From: Kiritimatiellia bacterium
Lineage (GTDB): Bacteria; Verrucomicrobiota; Kiritimatiellia; RFP12; UBA1067
DNA: 42,820 nt
Assembly: GCA_045132115.1 (NCBI GenBank)
Contig: JBGURT010000111.1
Coordinates: 1-42,820 of the forward strand
Reading direction: 5' to 3'
The first letter of the stretch is position 1. Each line of letters opens with the position of its first letter. This document shows positions 1,450-32,141 of the stretch, piece by piece. The translations under genes were made by a program, and so were the position numbers. The notes under the pieces were generated by a model. That model did no database searches. It saw only the letters and a list, made by a program, of their open reading frames with translations, and was not told the origin of the DNA.

Positions 1450-1476
1450 GGCGAATGTCCTTAACTTGGGGAAATG

Positions 1477-2193: not shown

Positions 2194-2217
2194 CTCTTCG
2201 GTTCCTTTCTTTCGCTT

Positions 2218-4244: not shown

Positions 4245-4280
4245 GATAATTTCGATTTTTCGGTATAAATTACTTTCTCC

Positions 4281-5417: not shown

Positions 5418-5439
5418 TCTGCTTTCGTCTTTCTTTCGT

Positions 5440-8400
5440 TTAGTGCGTGATCTCGATCTTGAAGAACTGGGCGTTGGTCGCCGCGGCCGGGAGCGGATAC
5501 TCGATAACGCCGCTGCTGGTGCCCACTTCAACCGTATCCTTGACCTCGGCCACGGTCCAGTCGGCATCGCCCAGATTCGCCTTGTAGAGAACCTTGACGT
5601 CGAACGAGACGGTTCCGCCTTCCACGACGTAGAACGCAGAAGCGGACGAACCGGCGGTCAATGTTTCGACTTCGCTCGTGTAGCCGATCTTGACGGATTT
5701 CGCCACAGTATCGATATCGAGCGAAGTGATGGCGATCACCGAAGAGTCGGCTATCGTCTCCGCGGCGGCCTTGGCCTCTTCGATCGTATCGTAGCCGAAC
5801 GTCAACGCGGCGATCTTGGGATTAGACAGCGTAGAGACGACCTGCGATGCCATCGCGACGGTGCTCGCTCCCGAGCCCGCGGCCGGGGCGGCGGCAAGCA
5901 GAACCGGAGCCATGCCGGAAGTCGCCGTTCCGGCGCCGCCGGCGGCGAGTGTAGCAAGATCCGTGCTGTAAATGAAGCCGATTCCCTCGCTGTCGGTCGT
6001 GATCGCATCGAGCGGCGTGTTCGTCCTCCAGCTTCCGTCCGCCTTCTGCGCGTCGCTCGCCTGAGCGTACTCGTAGGCGTCGGGCAGGCTGTTGCCGTTG
6101 GTGTCGGCGTCTTCGATGTAGATTTCGATCGAATCGCCTTCGCCGAGAACACCGGCGGAGTACTTGACTCCGGTCGGGTTGAACGGCACCGCGCCAATCA
6201 AGCCGCGGGCGCAGAGGTAGCCCATGGACTCCCAATCGTCGCACACGCCATTGTCGTTGGAGTCGATGAACGCGCGGAAGTAGTACGTTCCCGGCTCGAT
6301 ACCGACTATCGTGGCGTTGTCGGGCACCTCGCCGGCATCACCGAGCGTGGCGAGACCGGTCACATAGCCGGCCGCAACGGGTTCGCCGGTGAAGTCCGGC
6401 TTCGTGAACGCCTGCACCCGGATGGTGGCCGCATCAGCGGCGACCGGCCCGAAGTAGCGGACCTTCACGCCCTGGGTGCGCATCGCGATGTTGTTCTCGG
6501 CGACATTGAGGAGGAACTTGCCGCTGCCGCCATTTTCGTCGGTCTTGTACTTGGAGTTGTAGCCGTAGACCGTCCAGGTGTATTCCTTGTTGTTGGCGTA
6601 GACGCCATAGCCGTGTTCGCCGTCGATCTTGTCGCCCACGCAGATAGGCGCGGTCCAGACATATTCGCCCTCGGCATTCTCGAGCGGCATCTGCTGGAAG
6701 CCGGAGTTGTAGCTGAAGCCTTCTCCGGTCACGACGATCCTGAACGCGGTGTAGGTGCCGGCGCGCTTCGTCATCGTCCAGCGGAAAGTAGGCCGCGCGT
6801 CCGTGACGCGATAGCCCGCCTGCTCCGTGGGTTCGACCGCGACCGCCACCGAACGCATGCCTGCGGGATCGAAGGCCCTGATGAACGAATAGCGGGCGAC
6901 AGACACCGTATTGCTCAACGACGCCGTGGTGACCTTTTCGATATCCCCATTGCCGAACACTATGCGGTACACGACATCCCTGATATCGATATCGTCGCTG
7001 TTTTCGTCAACGATGCCTTCGGTATCGGCGGCGAGATCCCAGTCGATGTCGAACTTGCCGTTGCCCATGAACCAGCCCTCATGGATGAACTTGCCCAACT
7101 CGCCGGAGATATTGACAACACGATCGTCGACGACCTTGGTGGTGTCGTTGGCCGTGTAAGCCCTGCCGTTGTAGTAAGACCTGACGACCCTGACACGCAC
7201 GAATCTTCCAAAGCTGCCGGCTTCTTCGTAAGTGTCCTCGTCGAGGTTCTCGGACCACTTGCCCCAGGTGGCTTCGCGGTCGTTATCGCCGGTGACGAGG
7301 TCAGCGCGAACCGAGACGGGCGAGGTGCGGGTTAGCTGGATCGCGGCCGCGCCGCCCTTCCAGCCGATGTCCACGTCGCACGCGACACCCATAGGCTCGC
7401 CGGGCGTGTAGAGGCCGTCGCCGTCAGTATCGAGGATCGCGATAACCTGGCTCTTGCCTTCCTTGATCGCGCCCTTCGTCGCCTCGCCGAGATACACCGT
7501 GCGGGGCAGATCAGCAGACGGATTGACGTCATACACAACGCGGTAGGTATGCGCCTCCGCCGGCGTCTTCGCATTCGTGTCGCTGACCGACCAGATTGAC
7601 TTTCCGGCCAACGCGCCGAAGTCGAAGTCGTACTCGCCGGTGACGAGATTGATCGTGCCGAACTCGATGGTGAGCGCGTCGTTCATATACACCGTCGCGA
7701 TATCGCCATCGGTGCGGATAGACATTGTGGAGAGCGGATGATACTCGGAATCGGGCTTCACGATGTCTACCGTGTCTTTGCCGTAGTTGTAGTAATCCTC
7801 GAGATATTCGGCCTTGGTGCCGGTGCGGTAGACGTATTGCGTCTCGCCGTCGCTGTCGACATACGAGAGGCGCCAGCTGAACAGCGTGTTGTCCGGCGTA
7901 TAGGCATCTTCGATGACGATCGATTTCGCCTTGACGTTGCCGGGCGTGAGCGTGCCGACGGCGTGGCGGTTTTCCCACTTGCCGAGCACCTTGGCATACG
8001 CATTGGAAGTCGCCGCCGTCGAGGTGGAGTTGGTGCCGCCATCGACAATGAACTTCGCGTCGAATTCCGCGTTCGAACCGTTGCGCGTCACATAGACGAG
8101 CAGCTTGGAGTCTTCTACGTCGTGGATGTCGGCTTCGTTGTAGCTGACGGTGAGCGCAAGCGTGGGAACCGGGTGGTCGATTACCGTATCTTCCACCGTG
8201 TTCACATGCGACTTCCTGCTGCCGATTATCGGCTGGACCATCTGCGAATAGCGCGCCTCGCTCCTCATCGACCAGCCGTCGTCGTCAGCATCGGTGCCGG
8301 CGTCGTATTTGAGCCGTGTCGCGTAGTCGGACGCATACTGGTCTTCCCAGGAATCCTCGACTTGATCGTGGTCGGTGAAGATCTCGCCGACATACAGTTT

Positions 8401-11400
8401 GCCGATCTTGTAGAAGTAGTCGAGGCAATAGGTGTTGGCCGAATACGCATTGCGCGCGTCGAACTTCTTGCCGTCGACATCGAAGACTTCCGAGAGGAGG
8501 TATTCCGCATAGTTGGAGAGACCGTCGTTATCGTAGTCGTCCAGGCCATCGGAGCCCTTGATCATGTACCTGAGCGCAATCGCGTCGGAAATGCCGTCGT
8601 CGTCGGTATCGACCTGCCACGGATCGGTCGGATTGCTGCCGCGGTCGTATTCGTCGACCAGCGTAAGCTCGCCACCTACCGTCCTGGACTTGTCGCGAGC
8701 ATCCGCCGCGGTGATCCACGGCGAGATCTGCCAATCGGTCGTGGCCGTTCCTCTGGCCGCGCTTACGCCAGCCGGACCGAACATCGTGTAGAGTTCCCAG
8801 CCATCCGGGATGCCGTCGAGGTTGGTGTCGTTCGTTCCGGCCTTGAGAATGGCGGACGAAGCATCGGTCAGCCCGATCGCCGCGAAATACTTCTTCACGA
8901 GCGCCTTGTCAAGGTTGGTGAACTCCTTGGTGTTGACCGACGGATCCGCCACGGGATTGGCCGTGTTGGGATTGAATCCGTAGAGGTCGTAGACCTGGGC
9001 GTGCACAAACGCGATCGTGGCGTTATTCTCGACGCCGGTCACTCTCCACTTGGAGAGATCGCCGAACGCGGTCATATCGTCCGTACCGGCGCCCCAGACA
9101 AAGTCCGTATCGGTGCCGTATCTGTATACGGTCAGATACTTGCGCTCGACATCAAGCGTGTCGCCAGTTTCAAGGCCTTCGCCCGTCAACTCGGCCACAT
9201 AGCCGGTTTCTCCGGTCTCGTCATTTACCACCGTATACACATAGCCGCTCTGCTCGGCGTAAGCCATAACATCGCCAGCCACATACCTGCTAGCATCGGT
9301 CGGATCGGCAGGATCTGTACCCAAGTCAATTTCGTCGTCATCATTGATACCGTCATCGTCAGTATCGTCGTCGTTCGGATCGGCTCCATTATAGAAGTCT
9401 TCCTTGTAGTCATCATCCGTCGCCGCGGGATCGGAGTTGACAGAATACTTCACATAAAGCTCCCAGCCGTCCGGCAGGTCGTTGCCATTGGTATCGGTAT
9501 ACCAGCTCGTGAGATCGTATTCGGTTTCCGCACCAACGAGCGGCAGATACATCTTATCGGTGATATACTTGAGCCTCCTCGTGAACGCAACCGTATTGTT
9601 GCCGGCCGCGCTTGCCGCAACCTCGGAATCGTCTTCGCTGCCGGTGTCTTCGACAGCGGCTTCAATCGAATCGGGCACGAAGAATTTCGGCCTTGCCGTA
9701 GTCACGTCCCAACCGTACCAATCGTACACCGCCGAGTGGATGATCGTGGCCTCGGCCGTGATATAACTCTGGAACTCGCCCTGCGAGAGCGTTACCGTGG
9801 TGGGCACGCCAACGAAGAGTTCGTCGCCTACCATGAACGTCGTATAGAGATCTTGCGTCCCCGGTCTGACCGCGTAGGACGTCTTGGCGCCCGTTGTCTG
9901 GTCGGTGACGACCATAATCTGGACGTTGGTCTTCACATACGCGCACCAGTCTTCTTCGGTTACGCCGTTCCAGAACTCGTCAAGCTCCTCGACAGTCGCA
10001 CCGGCAATACCCATTGCCATCGCAAAAGCATTGTCGTATTCCGGAACTGCTTCAAGCGTTTCCGTGCCATACGCGCCCTCCGCAACCGCCTTCTTGTAGA
10101 GATAGTAGTCGTCGTACGGATCGTAGCCGCTCTTCACGGAATCCTGCGCCACCGCGTCGACGTAATCTATCGTCGCGTCAGCCTTCGAAGCCGCGTTCAC
10201 GTAGCGGATGTACAGCTCGTAGCCGTCCGCAACCTGATTGCCGTTCGAGTCCGTCACGTCCGCCCCAAGAGCCGCGTAGTCCGTTCCCGCACTCTCGTAG
10301 CTCGCAAGCGTGATCTTCTTCCAGATCATCGTGAACGGCACCGTGTTCGCTCCCTGGACGATCGTCGTCTCGGCGCCGTCCTCGCCCTCGGTCACCGTCG
10401 CGACGCCAGGCTTCGCCGTCGTCGGATCGAACCCGAAGAAGTCGTACACCGCAGAGTGGATCAACACCACGTCCGCCGCAACCCCTGTGTCATAAGCGTC
10501 TACCGTGTAGTCCTTCGTGCTCGAGCCTGTCACGATCAGCTGCCCGTTCACCTCCGTCGTCGTGTAGAGCACCTTGTTCGACGGATTGGCGACATACGTC
10601 ACGCCGCCGATGTCCACCGTGTGGAGTACGCCCTTCCAGTACGCCATAACGTCGTTCTCGGGCACCGCGAGCCAGTACGCCCTCAGCGTCTCTTCAGTGC
10701 CGTCCGCGTAGCCGCCGGCGACCGCCTCGGCGTTCTTGTACTCGGGCACCAGCGCAAGGTCGCCAACAAACAGACCCTCCGCAACCGCCTTCTTGTAGAG
10801 ATAGTAGTCGTCGTACGGATCGTAGGCAGCCTCGACGGTGTCGGCGAAACCTTGCTGAATGGTGGTCGTGTCGACCGGGAATGCCTTGGAAGTGTTGGCA
10901 GAGGCAAAGCCCATGTACAGCTCCCAGCCGTCGGGGAGTCCGTTGGCGTTGGAGTCGTAGAAGCCGGGCCTGTAAGTCGAAGCCGACCAAGTGCCGTTGG
11001 TATTCATCTCGACCTCGTTGGCAAGGCCGAACTCCTGGAGGTACTTCACGACGAGGTACTTGTCAAGCGCAGTGAACTCCTTGGTGTTCACGCCATACAC
11101 CGTATTCCCCTCGGACACAACGATTGCATTCGGATTGGCGGTGGTCGGGTCAAAGCCGAAGATATCGTAGACGCCACCATGAATCACGGTTACGGGGACT
11201 TCCTTCACGCTCGCAGCGACGATGCCTTCCGCGGGTGCACCCATTGCGAGCGCGCCGTTGTACATGAAGGTAGTGTAGTACTTGCCGGTTTCGCCGGGCT
11301 TGATGACATATTGCTTACCTTCAGCGGTCACGGCAACACTGAGGTTCGTGACGACATACGCCATCACGTCGCGCTCGCCAACATAGTCGGCGTCCCTGGT

Positions 11401-14400
11401 GAGCGGGTCGGTCTGGGCGAACTTGATTTCCCATCCGTCTGGCATGCCGTCGCCGTCGGAATCCCAGTTGTCGGCAATGGTGCCAAGCTCCGTTTCCTCG
11501 GCGTCCTTGAGACCATCGAGATCGGTGTCCTTGTCGGCGGCAGCGGCAGAGCCGGACTGCGTAGCGAAACAATCGAGTTCAAGGATGTCGGGGATTTCGT
11601 TCTGATTATAATCCGTATCCTCGATGAAGATCGCTATGGAGTTCGTCACGCTGAGGCTGTCGGGGACCTCCACCGCGCGCGGCGTATAGAGGAAGTCGGT
11701 CGCACGACCAATATTGTTGCCGTAACCCCAGGATTCCCAAGGCTCGAGCGTTCCATTGTTGTTGGAGTCGATAAACGCACGGAGGAACACCTTGCCAGCC
11801 TCGATACCGGCAATGGCAACATTGTTCGTTTCAATGCTGGACCTGACCTTGAGGTCTTCAACGGTCGAATCCATGCGGACACGAGCAAGCGGAAGTCCGG
11901 TGAAGTCTGCCGTGGCGAAGGCTTCAACAATGATGTTCGTCGGGTCGGCGATGCCAACCTCTCCGGGCCCGAAGTACCTGACGACTGCCGCCGCCTTGCC
12001 GTAACCCGTGGTAGTCTTGGGATGCGTGAGCGCATTCTCGACATCGATCGTGAACTCGCACCAATCGCTCCATGCAGAGTCGTCGATCGAAGCCCACTTC
12101 GCGTTCAAGAGCGCAACACGCCAATAGTAATTCGCGCCGTTCTTGAGAATTGTCGCGCCATTCGTCGGATTGGCGAAGCCTACATAGACGTCCGGCTGCA
12201 CGGCGAACGCCGACGGATCGCCGAGCGAAGCAGGCGTACGGCCAGGCAACATCTCGACCGGCGATTCCCAGACGGTATCAGATTCGTTCTTGCTGGTCGA
12301 AATCTGCAGCTTGTACGCCGTCATCGTCTGGTCTTCGGTGTTGAAGACGAACGTCGGGTGCGCCGAGTAGACGGGCGCGGTGTCAAGCGGAGATATCTGC
12401 TTGGCTATGGCGCGTGTCTGGTAGAACTCGCGGGTGAACGTATCCTTCACCTCGTCGTTCACGACTATCTCGTATGTCGCGGAGATGATCTCGTTCGTCG
12501 CGAGCCCCATCTTGACTGCATCCTTGACGAGCCATGCGAGGTCCAGATCGTATGCCGCCCCCGGGATGGCATCGGCCTCGGTGATGTAGGCGCGGTCGTC
12601 ATTCACGACCGTCTTCTTCATCACGATCCTGAGCGTGGACTTCTGGCCATTGATCTCCGTGCGGCGGACGACAACATCTGTCGTAAGTCCTTCCTCGACG
12701 GTCGCGGCATCAGTATTCTCCTCGTTGCCCGCACCTTCGTCACCGCTTGCGGTCGCGATGCGTTTGAAGACAGGCGAATCGTCCGTAAGTTCGATCACGA
12801 CGGGCTTGCCGGTCTTGTGCCAGCCGACTTCAACATCGCGCACATATCCGTAGGGTTCGCCGATGTCATAAGCGCCGTTTTCGTTAAGGTCTATAAACGC
12901 TTCTATAGTATTCTTGCCCTGACGCAAGAAACCGGAACCGCCGGCTACAGAAGCGTCGGAGAGCCAAAGCGTCTTAGGCCACCTGTCGGCAACATGATAA
13001 TAATATGTCGCGCGGATAACGTGATGGTCTAGATCCACTCCGGCATCAGTGATCGCGCCAAAGTCAAGTTCATATTCGCCGGTCGTGAAATCTATCTGAC
13101 CGACGACGGTCGCCGTCAAGTTTGAGGACGACAGATGAATCAACCCGTAATGGCCGTCGGCATCGCTCGACGTTTGCGCGAATATATCGTAAGTCTGCGA
13201 TACGGACACCACCTTTTCGGCCTCAATACCGTGCGCCGCCACATGCGCAAGATACTGCGAATATGTTCCTATGAATCTGAATCCGCCAGAAACCAACCTT
13301 TCAACAAAACTTTCATCGCCTACATGATTAGACAGTGCGCAATCCCAAATATATCGCGGCTCAGCATCAATGCGACGAGACTGGAACTTGATATCGCTAC
13401 CGGGAATGATATGGCCAGGATGCAGAATCCCGTGCGCCGTTGCTCCATTGACAAACGTGCCGAGCATGTGTGTCGCCTGCATGTCATCGTCGCTATTGGA
13501 TCCCTTGACAACAAATGTCGCGTCAACACGCTTCTTGTTCGCCGTGCTCGTTCTGACGACGAGAGAGGCGCCATTGATATCCTGCACGCCATAATACGTC
13601 GCCCTTACGCCGATTGCGGGCATAGGATGCGCCTCGTAATGATTGCTGCCGGTGCCGGCGTAATAGCCGTCGACAGCACTCGCGTTCATCCCGCCGTGCC
13701 AAGCGTAGGAGCGCGCTTCGGCGAAGTTGTCCCAGCTGTCTCCGTCCGTATCAAGGTGTGGATCGTACACATTCGGATTCGCATACGAGAGACCATACAA
13801 CACTTCCCACCAGGACTCCATGGAGTCATGGTCGCCAACCATCTCGCCAAGATACTCGGACTCGCGAACATGCTCTGCGTCAACAGCGGAAGACACAGGC
13901 GGCGCAAGGAAGTAATCCACTACAGCATCGCCCTTGGACCGCGCCTTGAGCGGATCGAATGCATAATCAACAACGCTGCGCAGATAGTAGCCATAAGGAG
14001 ACGGTCCGTAGCTGATCAACCATTCCTGATAATTCGTGAGGCCGTCATGGTCGGGGTCGTCGGTTGGCGCACAATCCTCCACGCCATAATATCTCTCCCA
14101 CCAATCGGGTATGCCATTCAGGTTGGCATCGACAGTAGAGACGTATGCCGGATTCGTAGTTCCGTCTGGCATCAAGCCCATCGAAAGCCAGAACGCATAC
14201 TTCTCGGGATCGCTGTAGTCTGGTCTCGCCCAATCAGGGGTGCCTGTATCTCCAGCGTCTCCGTCGAGCGCACCATCCTTCGTCGTAATCGCCCAGGCGT
14301 CTTCCGGACCTTGTCCATCCCAGTAATCGGCTTGGCGCTTGGCGAACGCCGAGCCGACGGGGACGAGATCGGAGTTTTCCCTGAACGAACGCAGATACCT

Positions 14401-20400: not shown

Positions 20401-23400
20401 TCCCTTGCCGCTTACGTAGACATGGCCCTTGCCGATACCTTCCTGGCTGGCGTAAAGCCGGGAAAGTTCATTGTTCGAGTTGCCGCCGGACGGACCAGTC
20501 GCTCTCGTTTTTACTTCCTTGGCGTCCGCCACCTTGAAGTACCAAGTACGCTCGAAGCTACCGATGCCGGAGTCCTTGTCCTTGTCGGCGACCGTGACGC
20601 GAACACGCTTCGTGCCCGGGGACGTGAAGGCGGGCGTAAAGGTTTTGCTGTCGGTGTCGGTGCAGGTTTGAGTATCAGCCGATCCGTCATCGCTCTTCCA
20701 GGTTACGGTCACACCGGCGTCAAGGTCTGCCGCAATATCGTCAATCGAGAATTCGATTGGCTCGCCGGCGCCAATCGCCGCCGCGAACGCATTCGATTCC
20801 GTATTTTCCTCGCCCAGCGAAGTAATCAGCACCGGCTCTACGTTCTGGACGGTGATGACGGTGGGGGTTGAGGTATAGAAATCGCTCCACGGAATGGTCG
20901 GAGCATGCGCAATAGTTGCATTGCCTTCAGTGATAACACTCGGGCTGATCTTCCAGCCCTTGGTGGAGGAGAGCTTGGTGCCGTCGAGCGTATCCAGATA
21001 GAAATTCGCCGTCTTGACGCCAGCAGGAATCGTGGCAACATAATATGCGATAGACGCAGGATCGGTCGTAATGGCGCCGAGCGAATCGTATGCATCGATG
21101 CCGCCCAGGATCAGGACACCCTTCTTGGCGTCAGCGGTACCCGCAGGTGCAAGGGAATCGACCACGATTTTCACCTTCTGTTCTTGAGCGTACGCTTCAG
21201 ACAGGACGATGGACATGCGCGAAGCGTTCTGCCCGACGCTCGTTTCGGCGTAATCCGTAAACCCGCTTTCGGTCGTGATCGAGACCGAAGGACTGTCGTT
21301 CACGACAAGCTTGCAGACGAACTTCTGGCCATAAGCCTTCATGTCCTTGTCTTTGGCCTGGAATGTCAAGGTCACCGTTCCCGGGGCATTGAACGTGTAC
21401 TTTATTTCGTTGGCCGCGTCGTTCGGGTTGCCGTATATTTCATCGTTGTCCGTAACCGCACCGCTGAATTCCCACTTGAGCGCGAACCGCTCATCCTTGT
21501 CCGTGGTGTCAGCATCGTCTGTCGCATCAATATCCTTGGTTACGTCATCGACCATCACCTGGAAGGTCTGCTCGATTCCCTTGGCGACAGACACCTCGAA
21601 AGTTCCGCCGGAAACTTCAACCGCGTTGCCGCCGTTTATCGTAACGCCGGTGATCGCAGGTTCCACATTTTTGGAATACAGCTTCAAAGTCTTGCTCTGA
21701 TAGCCGGTTACAATATTATTCTCGTCGTAATCCTCGGAAGTGCAAAGGACGACCTCATACTGGCAGAGAGTGCCCACGCCCATGCCGCCATCCGGGAATT
21801 CAATATAGCCCGGCTCGGATTCATACTCGCCAGATTCAATCCGCAATCCCTGCGTAGCCGCAGAAGTCGTAACCGGATAACCGGCTGAGGCTTTCTTGGT
21901 TTCATCATTCTTGGGCTTGAGGAATGCGTAAACCGTCTTATTGTAAGACTTGGTCAAAGTTACCTTGACGGGAATCGTGGCTTCGTCCGATTCATCGAAT
22001 GTCGCGCTGGTCACATAGCTGGCGCCACCGTCCGTGCTGACATAAGCCTGCATCGTCGCGGGCTCGGAGATGGATACGGAGACCTGCGCCTCGTTGCTGA
22101 CCACATCGCCGACGGGGGTTTTGACGCGGAAGGTCGTAATGTATTCTCCGGAAGCATAAAGGAGCGACGGGAGTTTGGTCGGGTCTGCCTTGCTTGCCAA
22201 AACCCCCGAAGAATTGAGCACCCAAACGTCAGCGTCTCCGGCGACAAGCGTCTCCCAATCGTTGGCTTCTTCCGTAAGCTTGTATTCGATCGTATAGCCG
22301 GTGGCGGTGTCGGTAACATTCTTGTAGTTGTCGGCGATCGTGAACGAGAAAGTACGCTCGACATTGCCGACGCCCTTGACGCTAGAAGCGGTCGTGAGCA
22401 CCGGAGCCGACGGGACGAGCTTCGCCACATGATGCGAGGGGGTGTAGTAGGTCGCGGCGGCCGCGGGGGAATCGACGGTAACTTTGAAGCGCACGCCGTT
22501 GCCGGTAGTGCTCGTATATTTGTCGGCGCCAAGACCGAAGACATAGATGTTCTTCGTGAGGGAGGTCGTACCGGCCGGGAACGTGAATTGCACCGTATCC
22601 ACATTCAAATAGCTGCCAGCCTCGTTGTCTTTGGCGATATGCACATAATCATAGATATTCAGGCCGGTCGTAGCCGTCGTATTCTGGAACTCCGGCGTCA
22701 CGGTGACGGTGACATCTTCCGTGTAGGCCTCGCTCATCGTGAGCGTCAAGGTGCCGATCGAGCTTTCGTAGTCAGTCCCGACCGTCATGGGGTCTGCGCC
22801 GGTGAGCGTAATTCTGGGCGTGAGCTTCTCGCCCACGACCATCTGTTCCGTCAAGTAGTCTTCTATCAGCAGCGAACCACTGTCGCGCGTCTGGAAACCC
22901 TTGTATTCGCTCAAATAGATGGTGGCCACCTGGCCCTCGGTACCTGCGGCCTGAACCTTGAAGGTATAAGACGATTGTCCCGAAGTAAGCTTGATGGTGC
23001 CGACACTGGCCGTAATCGTGCTTGCGAGATTGACAGGGTTGGCCATCTCAACCGCATCGTCGCCAGCAGCAACCATGACGTCATTTCCGGAAATGATCTT
23101 GATCGCGGCATCGTTATCCGACCAAATATAGAGTTTGGAGGATACGGACGGCGAACCGGTCACTTCAATCGTGAGCGTAGAGTCGCTTGTCGTGGAGTTT
23201 TCATGCACGAGAGCCCAATAGGTATTGCCGCCATAGGTCGTGCTCTGATTGGCAAAGTCCACAGTCTTGACGAGGAACTGGCTCAGGTACATGTCGTAGT
23301 TGCTCGTGCGCGACGGGAACCATTGATCTTGAGCTCCAGTAGTATCTGAAGCAAACATCAGCTGGGCCTCGACCGATTCATCTGCAGTAGAAACGATTTT

Positions 23401-23937: not shown

Positions 23938-23949
23938 GGTGCTTTTCCT

Positions 23950-24342
23950 TTACTTAGAGATTCTCTGTCTGATCATTTCCCGCGAACGGGCCGCCTGTGC
24001 TTCGATCGCCGCGTTGGCGTTCTCGCACTGCTTGTACAAATCGTTCCAAACCGGATTTTTCTCGAGCTCGGCCTTGATCGCTTCGTCGGTCGCGCCGGGC
24101 ATCTGCGCCTTCATGTCGTCAATCATCTTCTCCATTTCCGCGACAACCATGGCGCGTCCGCGCATGAGATTGCCGCGCTCGGCGATGGCGGCATCGATCT
24201 GCGCACGATATACGGGGTCTTCAAGACGGTTCTCGACCCCGGAACCCTGCGGCTCCTGCTCTTCATCGCGGCTGCAACCGGTCCATACGGCCGCGCAAAC
24301 CGCCGCCGCCAAACAAAATCCCGTTATTCTCTTCATCGTCAT
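23950..24342 (-). CDS. Small predicted lipoprotein, 130 aa, helical, function unknown
   Basis: I start it at MTMKRITGFCLAAAVCAAVWTGC. It has a signal peptide and a lipobox-like WTGC, followed by a charged, helix-prone sequence. The ATG at 24340-24342 overlaps the TGA (24339-24341) of the upstream 2.4k-aa gene as ATGA. Its stop lies 12 nt before the giant gene ATG. The 158-aa track ORF is an upstream extension. Confidence 0.7.
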   Translation of the reverse strand: MTMKRITGFCLAAAVCAAVWTGCSRDEEQEPQGSGVENRLEDPVYRAQIDAAIAERGNLMRGRAMVVAEMEKMIDDMKAQMPGATDEAIKAELEKNPVWNDLYKQCENANAAIEAQAARSREMIRQRISK

Positions 24343-27300
24343 GGAGTAGGTTCTTCGTAGTATATGTAGTTTTTCGGTTTCAAGACAGAAGGCGCCTGCG
24401 GACGCATATTCCCGTCGATTCTCCAACGGTAGAACATGGAGTTGGACAAATTCCAGAATTCATCCCAGCCTTCGTAGGCGCCAGGCGTGCCCTGCAGACG
24501 CTGGTCTGGGATATCGATAACCGAGCAATGGGCGGCATCGAACGAGGTGGATTCGCGCCCGTTGCCGCTAAAGACAAACCACCTTACCGGGATGAACCCG
24601 ACATTGAACTTGTAGCCGTTGTTGATCATGGCGGTTACCTTGAAGGTCACGCTGGTCCAGGCACCGCCGGAGAGATCCTGGGAGTTGGAGCCGGGTTCAA
24701 GGCCGCGCAAGACATACGGCGACCAGATTTCCGCAGCGTCATTTTCGTTGGTGACGGCCATGTAAATCGTTATCAAGGCATTTTCGGCGTTGCGCGTGAT
24801 GGAGGGGCCGTCGGCGGTGACTTTTTCGGTCACGCTCTTGTTGTATCGCGTCAGATCCTTCATGCCGGCGGTGAGATGAAGGCCGCCAACGGTCGGGTCC
24901 ATATCAAACCAATACATCGTAGTGACATCGAGATTCGTGTGGAAATTGCCATTGTAGGAGTGGAACTTCGCGAGGCGGATCTCGCCGTCGGAGTTGGCGA
25001 AGGACGACCCGTCGAGACGCTTGCCGGCTACCAGCCAGTCGAGAACCGCAGGCGTGTAGGCATTGTTTTCCGTAAGGCCGTAGCCGCCGTCTTCGATACT
25101 CTTCGTGAGTTCGCTCCAAGGCCGTGCCGAGGCCACCACATAGACCGCATTGCTCACGCCTTTGCCCACGTTGATCTCCACCGTGCCCTGCCTGCCGGAG
25201 GCTTCTGCAAGCGCAACGGTATTGGTCGTCACGGAATCGATTTCAAAGTAGTTGCCCACCTTGTAGGTGATGTTGGTGCCGAATTCGGAGCCCTTTTGCA
25301 CGAGCACCATGACCGTATCCGTCGTTTCGGTCGCATCTCCCACAGTCTGCTTGAGGTAAGCAGCGGAATCAGGGTCGATCTCGCAATAGATTATCACCGA
25401 AGCACCGGACGGCGTGGGCGGATCGCCCGGCAAAACCTGCCCCGCGTTGATGCTACCCGGGGTCTTCACGATTTCCTTGCTCCAGTTCTCCTCCACCGAG
25501 CCGTTGGAATTCGTGACCGAAAGCGAATTCAACTTGTTGCCGTTGTCGTAACCGACCGAGAACCATTTCGTGCCGTAAATGCCCTGGTTTTCCGCATCCT
25601 CAGTGAGTTTACGGACCATATTGGTGGTGGAATATTCCCACGCAATCGCAGACGGCGTTCCGCTCCGGCGCGCAATCGCCTCGTAGCCGTCGGTGCCGCC
25701 CAGGACGACCTGCTCTTCTATCACGTCGGAAGCGCGAACAAGCTGGATCGCAACCGGATTGAACTCGCCATTGTAGGTGCCGTCTTTGCTGAAGGTGAAA
25801 TCGCCATCGCTCGGCGCCGTCCATTTCCAGATGCCGTCGCGCTCGCCGGCCGATTCGTTTAGCGACGCAAGGGAACGCGGAGAGGCGACATTGAGGAACG
25901 CAAAGCCTTGGGTGATGTTCTTCGTCTTGCTCGCCTTGGCGTAGCCGCTGCCGATAGCGCCGTCGTCGTCCGTAAATCTCACAATCGTATTCGTATGGCC
26001 CTGGAGCGTAATGACATCAAGGTGCCACCCCTCGATGCTCTGGGCGGCGGGAATCGCGACTTCAATATACTGGTTCGTCTGATCGATATTGACAACGCTG
26101 TCTACAGTGTCCTCGCCGTAGGCGTTCACTTCATTGATCCAAGCCCAGCCCGGGGCGATGGCGTCGAGAATCGTGTACGCAGACTTGCCGTTCATGCCGG
26201 CGAACTTCTTGTTGTAGTCTACGCCCAAATACCACTCCGGCTTCACCCACTCGCCGGAAACATTGAGGAACTGCTCGTCCACCGGCGTCTCGGAATCCTT
26301 GAGATAGTAGGTGACAGAGAGCATATACTGGACGATTTCCAAGCTCTTCGTCGTGGCTGCAAAAATCGAGGACGGATTTTCCTTGAACGAGCTGCGGAAG
26401 ATGTACTCGCCTTCGGCGCAGTCTTCGCATTTGACCAGCTCTTTGACCCCGGCAGGCGCTGCCGCCCAGTTTTCGTAGCCCCATGGCATCTGGTCGTTCA
26501 GGTAATAAACGCGGACGGTAATGCCCCTGTCGAAGTCGATTTCTTCCGAGAGAGCGGTGGCGTAGACTTCCGCTTGGATGCCCCAATCTTCGCCTGCGAG
26601 CGGCTGCTCGCTTTCGCGGTCGGCATAGTCGAGCTGGTCGAGCGTGTCCAGACCGCTGCGGAAGGCCATGATATTCTTGAAGCCGAGTCTCGGGACGATC
26701 GTTTCGGCGATGGAGACGTTGTCGATCACGACACGTACGACATTGTCGGGGACCTCGCCGCCGTTCATCCCGTTCGCGCCGGGAACGCCAATGACCGCAA
26801 GGCGGTAGGCGCGGTAGCTGCTGCCGGTGGTGCGGTAGGTGAAGTTGGTGAAGACGTCGCACCCGACATCGAAGTGCGTTACATACCGCCACATGGAATC
26901 GTTGGCGTTGGCGTCGGTCGCGCCATAGACGGTGACGCGCGCGGTGACATCCGGCGAATTATCGTAGCGCCGCGCCTTGAACGAAAGTTCGCCAACGGTC
27001 GGGGTGCCGTCGCCGGTGTCGACGAACGTAGGCGTCTGCAGGAACGGCAGATGCTGTGGATATTCGTCAAGATCTTCTGCCGCTACATTCTCCGTGACGG
27101 AGTTGTTGAGCGCGACCGACTGGCCGAAGTCCTCGAGGTTCACGGTCGAGCCGTCGGCCAAGTACTGGAGATAGCAGTCGTCACGCTCGTGTAGGAAGCC
27201 GCCCGTCCTGAGGTTCCAGCCCCACCACGCCGCAGTCGAGACCTCCGGGTCGTCGCGGAAGAGAATCTGGGTGATGAAGATGCTGCCATAGACGCCATTC

Positions 27301-30300
27301 CGCGCGGCGGCGGCGGCCTTGACCGTTTCCGGATCCATGACGATACGCATCATGCCCTTAACGCCGTGAAGCCCAAGGTAATACGACGCTACGCCGCTGG
27401 AGGATTTGAGCGGAATGCCGTCGGTCCGCGCGGAACCGACGAAATTGGTCACCGTCGTCCAATACGTCGTATCGTCGGCGGAAGCCACAGTAGCGGCGCG
27501 CACGCTCGTGAGCGCGGTATCGTTCGTGGCAATCTGCAAGAGAAGGTTGACGTTTTCGTTGCAGTTGGTGTAAGAAAAGGCGATCATGCCGAGGCCTGTG
27601 CCGCGTTCTATGCCCAAGGAGGTTTCGCCGTCGAAAAGCGGCGAGCGGAGCGAAACGACGCTCGCGGTGCCGTTCGTGGCCGCACGCGAAGCGCTAAGCT
27701 CGACGCTGTGCGGATGGACGACTTCCTCTTCTTCGTTCGTCGTTTCATGCACCCAAGCAGTCGTGTAGGCAATCGTCATCGGTGCGCCTGTCGTACCGTA
27801 TTTGCCGAAGTAGCCGGTGTCGCTCGTGTAGTCGTCGCCGCGCCACTGGGTGAAGGAGAAATAAGAGAGGACAATATCGGCGCTCGTCACGTCTTCTTCG
27901 TTGCCGGTGCGGACTTCCAAGGAGGCGTCGGCAGGCCAGTAGACGTCGAACGAACCTTCCTCGAGCGCAAAGCTGGAGATGGTGTTCGTGGCTACGGGAA
28001 TAAAGTCGTTGCTGCCGGAAGCGGCGATGCCGAGGATGATCTCCTGCTCAAGATCTGCGCACTTCAATCCCCAGTTGGTCCCCGCAAGATCTTCGGATTC
28101 TTTATCGACATTGTATGGCTCCATGCGATTATAAGCCGAATCCCAGAAACCGCCATGGAGCGAATCGTACATCCGCGAGACCGTGCCTTCCATATTCACC
28201 GTCTGACCCTGGTTGTAACTTACCTGATTAAGATCCGTCCAAGGATAAATATTGTTCTTGGTGTCCGCACTGCCGCGTGCATGGCCGGTGAAGAACTGCG
28301 GACGCGCAAAACGCGCCGGGCAGTTGGCGCTCGTTACGCCACAGGAGCCGGCCGTAAGACGTGCAGAATCGGCATCGTTGTAGATGAGCGTATTGTAGGT
28401 GCGCCCACTCAAGTCCTCCGCGAGCGCGCAAGTGCCGTTTTTCTGGATGCCGGCGACAATGTGTGTAGCTCCCTCGATAACCGAGGAATCCGCCGAAATG
28501 AAGATCGCCGGGAAGCGGAAGTTGCCGTTGCCGATATCGACATCGAACGCATAGGCGGCTGAAATGTTTTCTTTCGAACCAAGAAGCGTAGACGAAACCT
28601 TGCGACCGGAGACCGTCCAACGATAGAGCTCAAGGTTGTAGTGGTTGCCCTCGGAGCAGTTGGTGACGCGGAATTCGTAGCACCCCTTGCTAGGATGGTA
28701 ATACGCAACAAGCGAGAGCGAAGCGGTACCATCGTGCTTTTCGGTAAGATACCCCATCACCGCGCGAACGCCAAAGGTGTAGTTCGTGGCCGCAAATGGA
28801 TTGCCATAGGCACTGTTGACGGCATCATCGGAAAGGCAATAGATGAAATCGTCAAAGTCGATCGCCTGCGCGAGACGCGCGGTGTAGGATACGGTCCCGA
28901 TGCCGCGCGGAGTTTCCGCGGCATTCACAAATTCCAGCGAACCCTTGCCGCCGCCGTCGAGTTGCAAGGCATAAGCCGTGCCCGTCTTGTACTTGGCGTG
29001 GGTCCATTGTCCTTGATGCGCCTGAAGGCCCTGGGGAGTCTTTCCCTTGTTGAAATGTTTGTAGAGCTCGTAACCGTCTGGTTTGGTTTCACTTTTCATC
29101 TCGAGCGGAAACTTTTCGGTCCAGTAGTCGCTCGTGGCCGACATCGCCGCCCAGCCGTCAAAATAGGTGGAGTAGGTCTTCTGGGCGTTGGAAACGCCCC
29201 TCAGGGAGTCGGCATCGGTCGAAGAACCCACGAATGTCTCTTCGCCCAGGTTCGCATCGCTCCAACCGTTGAAATTCTGGAAATCGGCGCGGGAAATCAT
29301 TACCATGCCGTCGTCCTCAACATACTGGAAGCGCAAGTATCCGGTCTCTTCGCCGTACTCGATATCAAACCAGGCGTTGTCGCCGCTAGTGATGGTGGAA
29401 AGTCCGTTTATCGTATCGGGCCACTTGGAATAGGACCAATCGCCTTGGTGGAGATAGTTCGTCGTGTTGTTCTTGTCCACCGTGCGGAACCTCACCTGGC
29501 AAACGCCCTTGGTGGAATTGGTCACGGCCGGCATGAACGCATTCCAGGTAAGATCGCCGACAATCGTACCATAGTATTCGGCCGTCGCGCTCGAGGACGA
29601 AGTAGCGCGCATCTCCACATCGAAGCGCTTCAAGTCCGATTCGCCGTCGCGCAGACGCGTAAAGTAGTCGGTGCCGCCGGAAGCAAGGCGCGAAGCGGTC
29701 GTCGACCGGCGCGCGAGCATCGTGGCGAGGCGCTCGAAATCTTCGTCTATCCACTCCACATCCAGCCCCGTAAAGTCCACATAGCGGTAATACGGAGCGT
29801 CGACATTGGCCGTATAGTAGTATTCGATGTCGCCCGGCAAGGCGGAGCAGGAATCGTCGATTGGCTCGCCCACGAGTTCGCCATCCGTCTCGGTCATGTC
29901 CACGGACAAAAAGCCGCCGTCATGTTCGCCCTCTACCTTCGCGAGGAAATGGGTGTAGTTCCTGTTGTAGTTGGGCTTGGCGAGGTCTGCGTCTTTCACG
30001 CGCACGGCGTAGACTAGCGAAGGATCGGCTAGCGCCGACGGGTTGACGACGCGCATGTTCGGCGCCTCGGAGATTTCCGTGCCGTATTGGTCGAAGAACT
30101 TGATGTCGTACTTCGTCTCCGTGCGGACCTCGAGAACGGGATCGAAATCGTAACGGAGAATCCACGAGCCGTCCGGGTGCTTGCCGCGGCTGGAATAGAC
30201 GCCGTCGCCGTTGAGCCGCTTGGAGCGCGTCCCGTTGACCTCGATGTACTGCACGATGCCGGCGGTGTCATAAGAGGTATTGCCCAAGACGATCGCGCTC

Positions 30301-31529
30301 ATCCGGACGGTGCGGTTGGTGAAAGTGGCGTCTACCGCCGGGATATCGAGCGTCGCGCCCGAAAGTTTCGCCTGGGAGCTCGTCGCCGTCACGGAACTCG
30401 CTGCGAGTTCCATAGTGCCGCCGATGAGTTGCTGGGCGAGATAACGCCAGCGATAGTGGAAAGTCGCGTCAGAAACCGTCACTTCGTCGGCCGGGGCGCC
30501 TTCGGGCACGATGCGCTCCACCGTCGCCACCGGCTTAAGCCCCGTCACGCCGAAGCGCGGCATCGGCGCGTCGAGGAACGTCCCCGACCAACCGACAACC
30601 TGTTCGCCCGTAAGTTCGCTTTCGAAGGTGCCGCCCGGGATGAGCGTCGCCGTGCCCGCCGGATAAGAGCAAATCACATTGTCCACAATCACCATGCCGG
30701 AAGTCTCGAGTTTTTCGCCGTCGTGGTCGTTGCGCTCGATCTTGAAGCGCGCCGGACCGCGGTAGTTCACGAACTTCGGGTCGTTGAGCATGATGCGGTA
30801 GAAATTCCCGGTCGAGCCGCCGGCGGTCATCGCGAGCGTGATGTTGTCGTCGAGTGCCACCAGCGACGACGCGACATCCACCACCCCGTTCGTGATTGCC
30901 ACGACGTCCACGAGCGCACGCTGCCATTCGGCATCGGCCTCGGTCGTTCCGTTCGTGGAGACATAGAGCGCGATATAGTTTGGCGTAGCCGTGGAGAAGT
31001 TCACCGCATCGAAATAAATGCGGCCGATGCCGGAGGAATACAACGGCGAAACGATGCGCGGACGGTCGTCCGGATCGTCGGCATTGATCATCACGATCTG
31101 CCCGGCGTCACGCTGGGAGCGGGCACGCGATGCGGAATTGGTGAACGCCATCGCGGTGTCGTTTTTCCACGGCAGATAGTTGGAATCAGGGCCCAGCACA
31201 TTGCCGGAAACATTGAAAGTGTTGCCCAGACGCACATTCTTCAAATGCCAGAGATTTTCGCCGGACGGATTGAAATAAAATTCCGTCCCGGGCATGAGGT
31301 TGTAGTTCACGTCCTCGACCTCGCGCTCGTTCACACGCGTCCACGCGGTGCTGTCGTAACCTTGGCCGCTCACCGGGCACGAGTCGATTATGTCATCGTT
31401 CGCAAGGAGCAGGCGATCCGTCCCAAGCGTGGAATAAGACGCCCCAACCGTGGTCAGCGAACCGCCAACCACAGCCAAAAATAGCGCTAACACGGCCTTC
31501 ACACGCATATTGAAGGTGAAATTCCGCAT
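24339..31529 (-). CDS. Large secreted protein (~2,396 aa from ATG 31529, or 2,389 aa from ATG 31508), function unknown, with a lamin-tail-like domain
   Basis: The ORF is uninterrupted for 7.2 kb and begins with a signal peptide (MRNFTFNMRVKAVLALFLAVVGGSLTTVGA/S). The track start at 31571 is a TTG that forms the -35 hexamer of the promoter, so the true start must be downstream. I see no SD for either ATG, which leaves the start uncertain. Confidence 0.85.
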   Translation of the reverse strand: MRNFTFNMRVKAVLALFLAVVGGSLTTVGASYSTLGTDRLLLANDDIIDSCPVSGQGYDSTAWTRVNEREVEDVNYNLMPGTEFYFNPSGENLWHLKNVRLGNTFNVSGNVLGPDSNYLPWKNDTAMAFTNSASRARSQRDAGQIVMINADDPDDRPRIVSPLYSSGIGRIYFDAVNFSTATPNYIALYVSTNGTTEADAEWQRALVDVVAITNGVVDVASSLVALDDNITLAMTAGGSTGNFYRIMLNDPKFVNYRGPARFKIERNDHDGEKLETSGMVIVDNVICSYPAGTATLIPGGTFESELTGEQVVGWSGTFLDAPMPRFGVTGLKPVATVERIVPEGAPADEVTVSDATFHYRWRYLAQQLIGGTMELAASSVTATSSQAKLSGATLDIPAVDATFTNRTVRMSAIVLGNTSYDTAGIVQYIEVNGTRSKRLNGDGVYSSRGKHPDGSWILRYDFDPVLEVRTETKYDIKFFDQYGTEISEAPNMRVVNPSALADPSLVYAVRVKDADLAKPNYNRNYTHFLAKVEGEHDGGFLSVDMTETDGELVGEPIDDSCSALPGDIEYYYTANVDAPYYRYVDFTGLDVEWIDEDFERLATMLARRSTTASRLASGGTDYFTRLRDGESDLKRFDVEMRATSSSSATAEYYGTIVGDLTWNAFMPAVTNSTKGVCQVRFRTVDKNNTTNYLHQGDWSYSKWPDTINGLSTITSGDNAWFDIEYGEETGYLRFQYVEDDGMVMISRADFQNFNGWSDANLGEETFVGSSTDADSLRGVSNAQKTYSTYFDGWAAMSATSDYWTEKFPLEMKSETKPDGYELYKHFNKGKTPQGLQAHQGQWTHAKYKTGTAYALQLDGGGKGSLEFVNAAETPRGIGTVSYTARLAQAIDFDDFIYCLSDDAVNSAYGNPFAATNYTFGVRAVMGYLTEKHDGTASLSLVAYYHPSKGCYEFRVTNCSEGNHYNLELYRWTVSGRKVSSTLLGSKENISAAYAFDVDIGNGNFRFPAIFISADSSVIEGATHIVAGIQKNGTCALAEDLSGRTYNTLIYNDADSARLTAGSCGVTSANCPARFARPQFFTGHARGSADTKNNIYPWTDLNQVSYNQGQTVNMEGTVSRMYDSLHGGFWDSAYNRMEPYNVDKESEDLAGTNWGLKCADLEQEIILGIAASGSNDFIPVATNTISSFALEEGSFDVYWPADASLEVRTGNEEDVTSADIVLSYFSFTQWRGDDYTSDTGYFGKYGTTGAPMTIAYTTAWVHETTNEEEEVVHPHSVELSASRAATNGTASVVSLRSPLFDGETSLGIERGTGLGMIAFSYTNCNENVNLLLQIATNDTALTSVRAATVASADDTTYWTTVTNFVGSARTDGIPLKSSSGVASYYLGLHGVKGMMRIVMDPETVKAAAAARNGVYGSIFITQILFRDDPEVSTAAWWGWNLRTGGFLHERDDCYLQYLADGSTVNLEDFGQSVALNNSVTENVAAEDLDEYPQHLPFLQTPTFVDTGDGTPTVGELSFKARRYDNSPDVTARVTVYGATDANANDSMWRYVTHFDVGCDVFTNFTYRTTGSSYRAYRLAVIGVPGANGMNGGEVPDNVVRVVIDNVSIAETIVPRLGFKNIMAFRSGLDTLDQLDYADRESEQPLAGEDWGIQAEVYATALSEEIDFDRGITVRVYYLNDQMPWGYENWAAAPAGVKELVKCEDCAEGEYIFRSSFKENPSSIFAATTKSLEIVQYMLSVTYYLKDSETPVDEQFLNVSGEWVKPEWYLGVDYNKKFAGMNGKSAYTILDAIAPGWAWINEVNAYGEDTVDSVVNIDQTNQYIEVAIPAAQSIEGWHLDVITLQGHTNTIVRFTDDDGAIGSGYAKASKTKNITQGFAFLNVASPRSLASLNESAGERDGIWKWTAPSDGDFTFSKDGTYNGEFNPVAIQLVRASDVIEEQVVLGGTDGYEAIARRSGTPSAIAWEYSTTNMVRKLTEDAENQGIYGTKWFSVGYDNGNKLNSLSVTNSNGSVEENWSKEIVKTPGSINAGQVLPGDPPTPSGASVIIYCEIDPDSAAYLKQTVGDATETTDTVMVLVQKGSEFGTNITYKVGNYFEIDSVTTNTVALAEASGRQGTVEINVGKGVSNAVYVVASARPWSELTKSIEDGGYGLTENNAYTPAVLDWLVAGKRLDGSSFANSDGEIRLAKFHSYNGNFHTNLDVTTMYWFDMDPTVGGLHLTAGMKDLTRYNKSVTEKVTADGPSITRNAENALITIYMAVTNENDAAEIWSPYVLRGLEPGSNSQDLSGGAWTSVTFKVTAMINNGYKFNVGFIPVRWFVFSGNGRESTSFDAAHCSVIDIPDQRLQGTPGAYEGWDEFWNLSNSMFYRWRIDGNMRPQAPSVLKPKNYIYYEEPTP
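25690..26150 (-). other. Lamin-tail-domain (LTD)-like segment in the 2.4k-aa protein (approximate bounds)
   Basis: The segment WINEVNAYGEDTVDSVVNIDQTNQYIEVAIPAAQSIEGWHLDV ... AIQLVRASDVIEEQVVLGG fits the LTD pattern (INEV ... E(W/Y)IE(L/V) ... (L/I).GW.L ... L.L.d..g.v.d.V.yG). Confidence 0.5.
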
Positions 31530-31542
31530 ACTACTGTCAGAT

Positions 31543-31571
31543 ATGATACCAAAAATTTCCGCATAAGTCAA
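31543..31571 (-). promoter_or_regulatory. Sigma70-type promoter of the giant-gene unit: TTGACT - 17 nt - TATCAT
   Basis: The minus strand reads TTGACTTATGCGGAAATTTTTGGTATCAT. The -35 is at 31566-31571 and the -10 at 31543-31548, with TGG immediately upstream of the -10 (extended -10-like). It lies in an AT-rich island within a GC-rich genome and is the only sizeable intergenic gap upstream of the giant module. Confidence 0.7.
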
Positions 31572-31627
31572 CTGCTTTTTCGTAGAGTTAGCCCGATTTT
31601 ACCGTCGGAGATCCCTGGGGGGACGCG

Positions 31628-31658: not shown

Positions 31659-32141
31659 TCAACCCGCGCGGCGGCGGCGGAAGAAATCCTGGAGAATCGC
31701 GAGCGACGGGGCGGCAAGAACTCCGCCTTGGGTGGCGGGACGATGGTTCATGCCGGGATGGGAGAAAATCCCGAAGGTGCTCTGTCCTCCGCGCTTGGCG
31801 TCGTCCACGCCCCAGACTACGCGTTTCAACCGCGCCAATGCGATAGCCCCGGCGCACATGGGGCAAGGTTCCTTCGTCACGTAAAGCGTGCAATCGACAA
31901 GACGCTCGTTGCCCACGGCGGCAAACGCCTGGCTGAGCGCGACCATTTCGGCGTGGGCGGTGGCGTCGTGCAGGCATTCGGTCTGGTTGTGGGCCTTGCC
32001 TACGATCCTGCCTTCGCCATCGACTATGATGCAACCGAGGGGAACTTCCTCTTCGGCGGCGGCGATCTCCGCCTCGGCAAGCGCACGGCGCATCCACCGC
32101 TCGTCTTCGGACGGATCAATAGAGCTTTTCGAAGGTTCCAT
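31659..32141 (-). CDS. tadA: tRNA-specific adenosine deaminase
   Basis: The CMP/dCMP deaminase zinc motifs HAEMVAL and PCPMCAGAI are present, along with the N-terminal WMRRALAEA that is typical of TadA. An alternative start at M17 (32093) would remove the 26-nt overlap with the upstream gene. Confidence 0.85.
   Translation of the reverse strand: MEPSKSSIDPSEDERWMRRALAEAEIAAAEEEVPLGCIIVDGEGRIVGKAHNQTECLHDATAHAEMVALSQAFAAVGNERLVDCTLYVTKEPCPMCAGAIALARLKRVVWGVDDAKRGGQSTFGIFSHPGMNHRPATQGGVLAAPSLAILQDFFRRRRAG

Follow-up and report, generated by a model that had tools for sequence, protein, structure and literature searches.

Here we describe a set of three neighbouring genes, called A, B and C below, from a Kiritimatiellia bacterium. 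The genes lie on the minus strand of the window, i.e., the whole stretch of 42,820 nucleotides (nt) that was analysed (contig JBGURT010000111.1, positions 1 to 42,820, of assembly GCA_045132115.1). A and C encode giant secreted proteins, and B encodes a small lipoprotein between them. The trio is a real, conserved and undescribed module, and it is best explained as a cell-envelope module specific to the Kiritimatiellia of gut and rumen. A first-pass annotation, made from the letters of the DNA, had put the three genes forward as a candidate undescribed cell-surface system, and the part of this proposal that concerns an undescribed, conserved module is supported. The further suggestions, i.e., that the module sits at the surface, that the lipoprotein serves the giants as anchor or chaperone and that a Ca2+-stabilised fibre is formed, are plausible from the Sec signals, the TSP3 loops, the beta-sandwich folds and the fast divergence of C. 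We place the probability that the module is a lipoprotein-tethered, Ca2+-binding surface fibre or adhesin, with C as the fibre, A as its base or partner and B as the tether, at roughly 45%.

The three co-directional genes span 26 kb and together encode 8,691 residues, in agreement with the earlier estimate of about 8,700. The tight junctions are also as first described: A and B share a 4-nt ATGA overlap, and B and C are separated by 12 nt. The proposed Sec export signals are present, with signal peptides in A and C (predicted cleavage in C at ...ASA/TT) and a lipobox in B. The reading frames are unbroken across the 26 kb. There are alternative starts for A, as the listed TTG open reading frame (ORF) extends to 31571, overlapping the promoter, and a second ATG at 31508 is possible.

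Conservation of the gene set was assessed from a scan in which each GTDB species was represented by one genome and which returned 79 loci; using a B profile and tblastn against A and C, 83 non-duplicate loci were sorted. All scanned loci are from metagenome-assembled genomes (MAGs) of gut or rumen Kiritimatiellia, although some bins are mislabelled. The order A-B-C is found in 54 loci, and in four others B lies upstream of a long form of A, giving B-A-C. Six loci show A, a gap and then C, twelve contain only A, and seven hold too little DNA for judgement. Each of the six gaps contains a gene for a divergent, small helical lipoprotein of 109-208 amino acids (aa), and most of these lipoproteins end in Lys. 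The trio of A, a small helical lipoprotein and a C-like giant is present in 64 of the 76 informative species-level loci, i.e., the genes are kept together in relatives. The order and the tight junctions persist down to about 27% identity, amid different housekeeping neighbours. Each of five context look-ups returned the same picture: behind the A homologue comes a gene of 130-147 aa, and next to this a giant that exceeds 4,100 aa and has LamG and TSP3 domains. No description of this module was found in literature searches; papers on Planctomycetota count "giant genes" without characterising them.

The idea that the three genes form one unit holds only in part: the trio is conserved, but B and C are tied more closely to each other than to A. 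At locus L091 a distant B-family member and a colinear C-like giant overlap by 4 nt, and at L092 a distant B-family member is directly followed by a C-like giant of 5,433 aa; A is absent upstream of both. Since such B-C pairs occur without an adjacent A, B and C make up the core pair, to which A is frequently added as a second giant. The 12 A-only loci belong to the most distant clade (identity of at most 29%), and their A-like genes stand without B or C. In the inspected A-only loci, a secreted protein of 690-1,354 aa is in place after A, and this protein may be an alternative partner.

Some of these loci show additional features. In three A-only loci (L075 18802-22755, L076 16903-19344 and L084 19026-23087) the secreted protein after A has 814-1,354 aa, and the three proteins share the C-terminal motif (V/I)(N/D)FGDG(T/A)SGFM(K/Q)V(S/A)E. 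Locus L003 contains an extra giant just upstream of A-B-C (1-9884; 4,355 aa), which has a LamG_3 domain, ends in ...FFYIRIR and is not similar to A or C by BLAST. Loci L029 and L079, both of which contain A, belong to one MAG (CAMORM01); the module is hence present in more than one copy in some genomes.

A near-consensus promoter had been placed in front of A. This site matches the sigma-70 consensus best of all sites within 22-33 kb, while the number of promoter-like sites in that interval (4, against 4.3 in shuffled sequences) is not above chance. We take the promoter as real because it is conserved in two relatives, L001 and L010, whose A protein is 82% identical. The 5' block, consisting of the promoter, a short leader and the first A codons, shows a single mismatch over about 80 aligned bases. 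The conservation begins 10 nt upstream of the -35 hexamer and the DNA beyond is unrelated, so the upstream edge of the module lies just before the promoter.

The lipoprotein B, with its terminal Lys, is the one sharp, testable oddity of the module. Its family contains 119 representatives at 50% clustering, with lengths of 63-198 aa save one outlier. In the alignment of 85 members, C23 is the sole invariant column and G22 is conserved in at least 90%. Along the protein, the lipobox Cys is followed by a low-complexity linker, the motif MxDPxF, a long helix, the motif AELEKDPEW and a second long helix. The alignment ends with a variable tail of 0-40 residues and then the terminal (I/V)SK; the last residue is Lys in 101 of the 119 representatives, mostly as (I/V)SK. 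In the AlphaFold2 model, built from 85 sequences, the helices form an antiparallel hairpin with a predicted local distance difference test score (pLDDT) of about 98 over the hairpin. The conserved AELEKDPEW (DPEW) lies at the hairpin turn, and the lipid anchor and ISK lie together at the opposite end. No Pfam or NCBIfam family, Lpp included, matches B above threshold. The weak match to GmtX in NCBIfam is far under the cut-off and was rejected.

Protein C is mostly without recognisable domains. Its Pfam content is one LamG_3, one PKD and two TSP3_bac domains, covering less than 5% of the protein, and a motif count gives 15-20 dispersed DxDxDGxxD loops of the TSP3 type between residue 1318 and about residue 5900. 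The TSP3, LamG and PKD elements named by the first-pass annotation are hence found in C above cut-offs, whereas the LTD domain assigned to A is not supported (see below). The N-terminal 1,402 aa, at 24-40% identity in distant homologues, end in invariant Ca2+-type loops (DNxGDIxxDGIPD). This region is almost free of Pfam and PDB matches, the sole PDB hit being a single integrin-type Ca2+ loop. The C-terminal half contains ancient duplications: a block of about 900 aa (3170-4155) is repeated at 5002-5998 with 25-30% identity, and a unit of about 230 aa is present 3-4 times in residues 4159-5070. The C of the window is about 450 residues longer than that of the close relative L089, and the repeat copy number differs between them. 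The C homologues were read from genome loci rather than from a protein search; in a collection of 5.8 billion proteins, the N-terminal 1,500 aa of C returned one fragment and the last 300 aa returned one fragment of a C homologue. A candidate assignment to CglD (NF033765) was dropped, as its 22.8 bits come from the TSP3 loops only and the equivalog cut-off is 400. In the closest metagenomic relative (L001, 17572-20108) the C homologue shows a break around residues 808-893, and a 255-aa ORF has been called on the other strand; it is a frameshifted pseudogene or, alternatively, the result of an assembly error.

The three proteins diverge at different rates. In the closest relatives, A is 81-83% and B 80% identical. 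The first 3,237 aa of C are only 59% identical in L010; in L089, residues 1138-4361 are 48% and the last 1,350 aa 77% identical, while the DNA of the downstream flank and the 3' end of C (window 1-9319) is 87% identical. In L090, AckA, Pta and a KpsF-like protein encoded downstream are 92%, 93% and 85% identical, but the last 300 aa of C just 42%. Judged from these comparisons, C is a hypervariable gene at a conserved chromosomal position, a pattern that would be expected of an exposed structure selected by phages, host or competitors and that counts as indirect evidence of one.

Protein A is better conserved. It has 37 homologue clusters in the 5.8-billion-protein collection, which come as a short form (about 2,400 aa) and a long form (3,000-3,650 aa). 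The long form (P0012-P0034, e.g., L004 10001-13555) is extended at its N-terminus by about 1,100 aa carrying Gly_rich_2 (PF21722), DUF2341 and LamG domains; the A of the window lacks this extension, and in the partial protein P0035 the glycine-rich domain instead sits within the A core. The alignment contains more than 130 invariant columns, including the W/N/E/N/E/P/W columns of the conserved motif region (Table 1). No Pfam or NCBIfam domain is found in A, nor any Pfam domain in the A core of 17 relatives, and the family profile has no match among PDB sequences. No internal repeats were detected by masked-window BLAST or by profile-profile comparison of segments. Together, more than 90% of A and C is without a Pfam or PDB sequence match, and the Pfam, NCBIfam and PDB profile searches place neither giant in a known adhesin or secretion family. 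Both this result and the joint conservation of the genes speak for the first-pass annotation, which had named their opposites as grounds for refuting its proposal.

The C-terminal half of A, residues 1197-2396, was modelled with AlphaFold2 from an alignment of 18 sequences. The mean pLDDT is 74, with values mostly of 75-93 (short dips to about 56) at fragment residues ~420-1190, and the model is a string of beta-sandwiches plus one small helical insert. At the level of fold class, the best Foldseek matches in PDB are tandem CBM22, the EphB6 ectodomain, the MAM region of meprin alpha, SGBP-B from Bacteroides thetaiotaomicron and F-lectin, and a viral structure library returned generic tail-fibre-like beta-sandwich arrays. 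No enzyme fold is among the Foldseek matches of the modelled half. The LTD domain (PF00932) has no match in A, in 17 family members (E<=0.1) or in 16 copies of the motif region (E<=10); the profile of the motif region also found no PDB sequence and no other Pfam match. A kinship with thioester proteins and alpha-2-macroglobulin (A2M) was considered, prompted by Foldseek matches to C5 and Salmonella A2M and by a conserved GCYEF, and was dropped since A has no CxEQ motif and the matches have probabilities of only 0.06-0.47.

The giants show no known sorting or anchoring signal, as the first-pass annotation had stated. A regular-expression scan found zero LPxTG, PEP and GGxGxD motifs, and a hydropathy scan shows no hydrophobic segment beyond the signal peptides. 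Pfam and NCBIfam searches of A, B and C gave no match to autotransporters, two-partner secretion, the C-terminal domain of the type IX secretion system (T9SS; Por_Secre_tail/TIGR04183) or repeats-in-toxin (RTX) proteins.

We suggest the following mechanism. A single promoter would drive three translationally linked genes, and all three products would be exported by Sec, with A and C processed by signal peptidase I and B by signal peptidase II. C would be the variable working part, a very long Ca2+-stiffened chain of mostly unique beta-sandwiches (PKD, LamG and others), probably a surface fibre or adhesin for glycans or particles. A would be the conserved second giant, a non-repetitive chain of CBM-like jelly-rolls that probably serves as base or co-filament. 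B would be the tether: its N-terminal lipid would sit in the membrane, followed by an 18-residue linker and a helical hairpin about 55 Å long. The AELEKDPEW tip of the hairpin could dock the giant encoded after B, and the (I/V)SK-COOH at the membrane-proximal end could act as a second attachment handle. Surface exposure, the route across the outer membrane, who binds whom and the adhesive function are what we infer from these features.

Several observations weigh against the surface fibre. No component for translocation across, or anchoring in, the outer membrane is found in or beside the module, so that surface exposure is only putative and all three proteins may stay periplasmic. The A-like genes without B or C in the 12 distant loci mean that A does not strictly depend on the trio. 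The fold of B is generic, as Foldseek against PDB returned only generic helical hairpins, none at E<=0.001. Modelling covered B and half of A. For A, the template modelling (TM) scores are low (about 0.1 relative to the query and 0.2-0.26 relative to the target); the query is multi-domain, and only the fold class is established.

Alternatively, the module could be structural. B would then resemble Braun's lipoprotein, with its Lys joined to peptidoglycan by an L,D-transpeptidase, and A and C would be periplasmic or outer-membrane-associated scaffolds. We regard this as unlikely, but several features fit it: most B members end in Lys, the variable tail leads to a fixed (I/V)SK, B has a lipobox and an all-helical fold, and an outer-membrane export component is not visible in the module. 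There is also precedent, as OutB of Dickeya, which is not an Lpp protein, is attached to peptidoglycan through its C-terminal Lys by L,D-transpeptidases, and its C-terminal "Lpp box" tolerates substitutions (PMC12274547). A verrucomicrobial lipoprotein has also been proposed as peptidoglycan-bound (PMC10260701). However, since B is modelled as an antiparallel hairpin, its lipid and its Lys are at the same end, unlike in the parallel Lpp trimer, which spans from the outer membrane to peptidoglycan. Further, B matches no Lpp or other Pfam or NCBIfam family above threshold and is translationally coupled to the giants instead of standing alone as a highly expressed gene. The rapid divergence of C and its repeat variation suit an exposed protein better than an internal scaffold.

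B might also represent a new class of anchor, a lipid-tethered hairpin whose (I/V)SK Lys is cross-linked to peptidoglycan, as in Lpp and OutB, or to a giant, and whose conserved tip holds a Sec-exported fibre several thousand residues long. This can only be speculated, and we consider it a long shot. If true, it would be a hitherto unknown way for a diderm of the Planctomycetes-Verrucomicrobia-Chlamydiae group to mount hypervariable giant fibres without known secretion or sorting systems.

Kiritimatiellia are known as glycan degraders, and the module could serve nutrient capture. A and C would then be multivalent glycan-binding giants that hold mucin or plant polysaccharide for degradation, with B as the lipid anchor, much as in the surface glycan-binding lipoproteins of Bacteroides. 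The matches of A to tandem CBM22, SGBP-B and F-lectin, the LamG domain of C and the gut or rumen origin of all hosts agree with this. However, the flanks of the module vary by locus and contain no conserved gene for a glycoside hydrolase, sulfatase or transporter, and the fold matches of A are weak. This role, improbable as a separate explanation, overlaps with the surface fibre rather than excluding it. Finally, it is very improbable that the three are independent hypothetical giants or partly decayed DNA, merely neighbours without a joint function; the chance-level count of promoter sites, the interrupted C of L001 and the solitary A of 12 distant loci would allow this, but it is already contradicted by the synteny of the trio across 64 loci in different contexts, and also stands against the intact frames, the invariant columns of A and the conserved promoter block.

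Table 1. Positions of the module's genes and features in the window. Residue numbers refer to the encoded protein.
Feature	Position	Strand	Description and basis
Gene A	31529..24339	minus	2,396 aa from the ATG of MRNFTF (ORF and translation)
Gene B	24342..23950	minus	130-aa lipoprotein; own ATG overlaps the A stop codon (ATGA)
Gene C	23937..5440	minus	6,165 aa; Sec-exported; start 12 nt past B
Promoter, sigma-70 type	31543..31571	minus	TTGACT-17-TATCAT with TG extension; 10/12 matches
Conserved 5' block	31500..31580	minus	promoter, short leader, first A codons; alignment with L001, L010
A signal peptide	31440..31529	minus	aa 1-30, ...TVGA/SY cleavage; sequence and hydropathy
A C-terminal half	24342..27941	minus	aa 1197-2396, beta-sandwich/jelly-roll string; AlphaFold2
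A conserved motif region	25650..26207	minus	PGWAWINEvN ... QYvEvAiP ... GW; invariant columns
B lipobox cysteine	24274..24276	minus	Cys23 (WTG/C); invariant in family
B antiparallel helical hairpin	23956..24216	minus	helices 43-80, 86-94, 97-129; AlphaFold2
B C-terminal ISK	23953..23961	minus	terminal Lys conserved; family comparison
C N-terminal region	19732..23937	minus	1,402 aa, colinear in all C homologues; comparison of loci
C PKD	20578..20772	minus	aa 1056-1120; PF00801, 27.4 bits vs cut-off 23.5
C best TSP3_bac repeat	17947..18006	minus	aa 1978-1997; PF18884, 25.9 bits vs cut-off 25
C Laminin_G_3 (LamG_3)	15304..15624	minus	aa 2772-2878; PF13385, 61.1 bits vs cut-off 27.6
C anciently duplicated part	5944..14430	minus	masked-window BLAST
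C C-terminal region	5443..9498	minus	1,350 aa, no recognisable sorting domain; comparison with L089, L090

The module lies between housekeeping genes, with tadA on one side and ackA-pta on the other, as first reported. Upstream are a tadA-like deaminase gene (31659-32141), def and a SurA-like gene. Downstream, ackA (4281-5417) is on the same strand as C and begins 22 nt (5418-5439) after the C stop codon, followed by pta (3207-4244) and a KpsF-like SIS-CBS gene. The order of a giant followed by ackA is retained in L089 and L090. No terminator-like site was found between C and ackA, so the transcription unit may reach beyond the three genes; ackA-pta may be read through from the module promoter or be served by a promoter of its own within the 3' end of C. 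Scanning the window for Rfam families and tRNAs gave no matches. Long plus-strand ORFs of up to 1,764 aa run antisense to A and C (7738-13032, 13135-16875, 18013-20871 and 24528-31484); we read these as shadow ORFs of GC-rich coding DNA, not as genes. The G+C content is 55-59% within the module (window 8000-25000) and 60-63% in the flanks, which may be due to the giants being rich in Thr, Asp, Asn and Tyr or to a different DNA history.

Beyond pta and the KpsF-like gene, a cluster resembling type IV pilus or type II secretion genes occupies window 1-2193 on the minus strand, and such a cluster is also found at L090 4775-11098 and L089 16996-23005. The part inside the window consists of a 238-aa gene of unknown function (1477-2193) and a PilM_2-like gene (4-1449), which runs off the left end and is 76% identical to PilM of L090. 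In L090, the genes that come after these two encode an Amuc_1100-family protein, a protein with TSP3 and a larger protein. By analogy, the cluster resembles the Amuc_1100 pilus-like cluster of Akkermansia. It could matter for export; no link to the module was found.

Kiritimatiellia are common, but almost uncultured, in rumen, hindgut and some human gut communities, and to our knowledge nothing is known about their cell surface. At least 64 species-level lineages retain the module, which fills 26 kb of a small genome. C is among the fastest-changing genes of its neighbourhood, as one would expect of a structure in contact with host, phages or food particles. The module offers a defined set of targets: a 130-aa lipoprotein with two sharp motifs, the conserved N-terminal region of C of 1,400 aa and a conserved partner of 2,400 aa. 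It also raises the questions of how a diderm can display very large proteins when no adhesin export system is recognisable in it, and whether lysine-mediated tethering exists outside Proteobacteria.

Compared with known systems, and by the tests that could be run, the module is not a member of the RTX/type I secretion system (T1SS), type V, sortase or exosortase, T9SS cargo, CglD or Lpp groups, the last on both sequence and topology. There is no gene for a type V partner (Omp85) in the module, and no T1SS genes, i.e., ATP-binding cassette (ABC), membrane fusion protein (MFP) or TolC-like genes, are adjacent, the flanks being tadA, def, the SurA-like gene, ackA, pta and the KpsF-like gene. B is like Lpp, OprI and OutB in being a small helical lipoprotein with a lipobox Cys and a conserved C-terminal Lys. 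However, no relationship to that family was seen at the sequence level, and B, unlike Lpp, is modelled (as a monomer) as an antiparallel hairpin instead of a parallel trimer and sits in an operon of giant genes. SGBP-B, SusE/F-like proteins and CBM22 tandems, among the top Foldseek matches of A, are jelly-roll or Ig-like chains with which gut bacteria bind ligands at their surface. However, proteins of the SGBP type are themselves lipoproteins of 300-600 aa in polysaccharide utilisation loci, while the giants of the module are not lipidated, are 4-20 times larger and have no such genes nearby. C shares scattered DxDxDGxxD TSP3 loops with the cyanobacterial oscillin and SwmB and the myxobacterial CglD; these loops are the only sequence signal, and the module has no VWA domain and no motility genes.

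Two further groups of giant surface proteins can be compared. SprB, a gliding adhesin of the Bacteroidota and a T9SS substrate, is also about 6,000 aa long and is encoded in an operon with the smaller envelope partners SprC, SprD and SprF, which are needed for its function. The module differs in having no T9SS C-terminal domain by Pfam or NCBIfam, no PorP/SprF-like barrel gene and a 130-aa helical lipoprotein as partner, and in belonging to another phylum. The RTX adhesins of T1SS have no N-terminal Sec signal, carry C-terminal RTX nonapeptides and near-identical repeats, and have ABC, MFP and TolC genes beside them, whereas here both giants have Sec signal peptides, GGxGxD motifs are absent and most domains are unique. 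LapA, SiiE, MpIBP and other RTX adhesins are likewise very large, rich in beta-sandwiches, Ca2+-binding and variable in length between strains, and they are thought to extend from the surface of a diderm cell. By analogy, the module can be classed with the giant surface-protein systems, and it would work most like these giant Ca2+-dependent adhesins.

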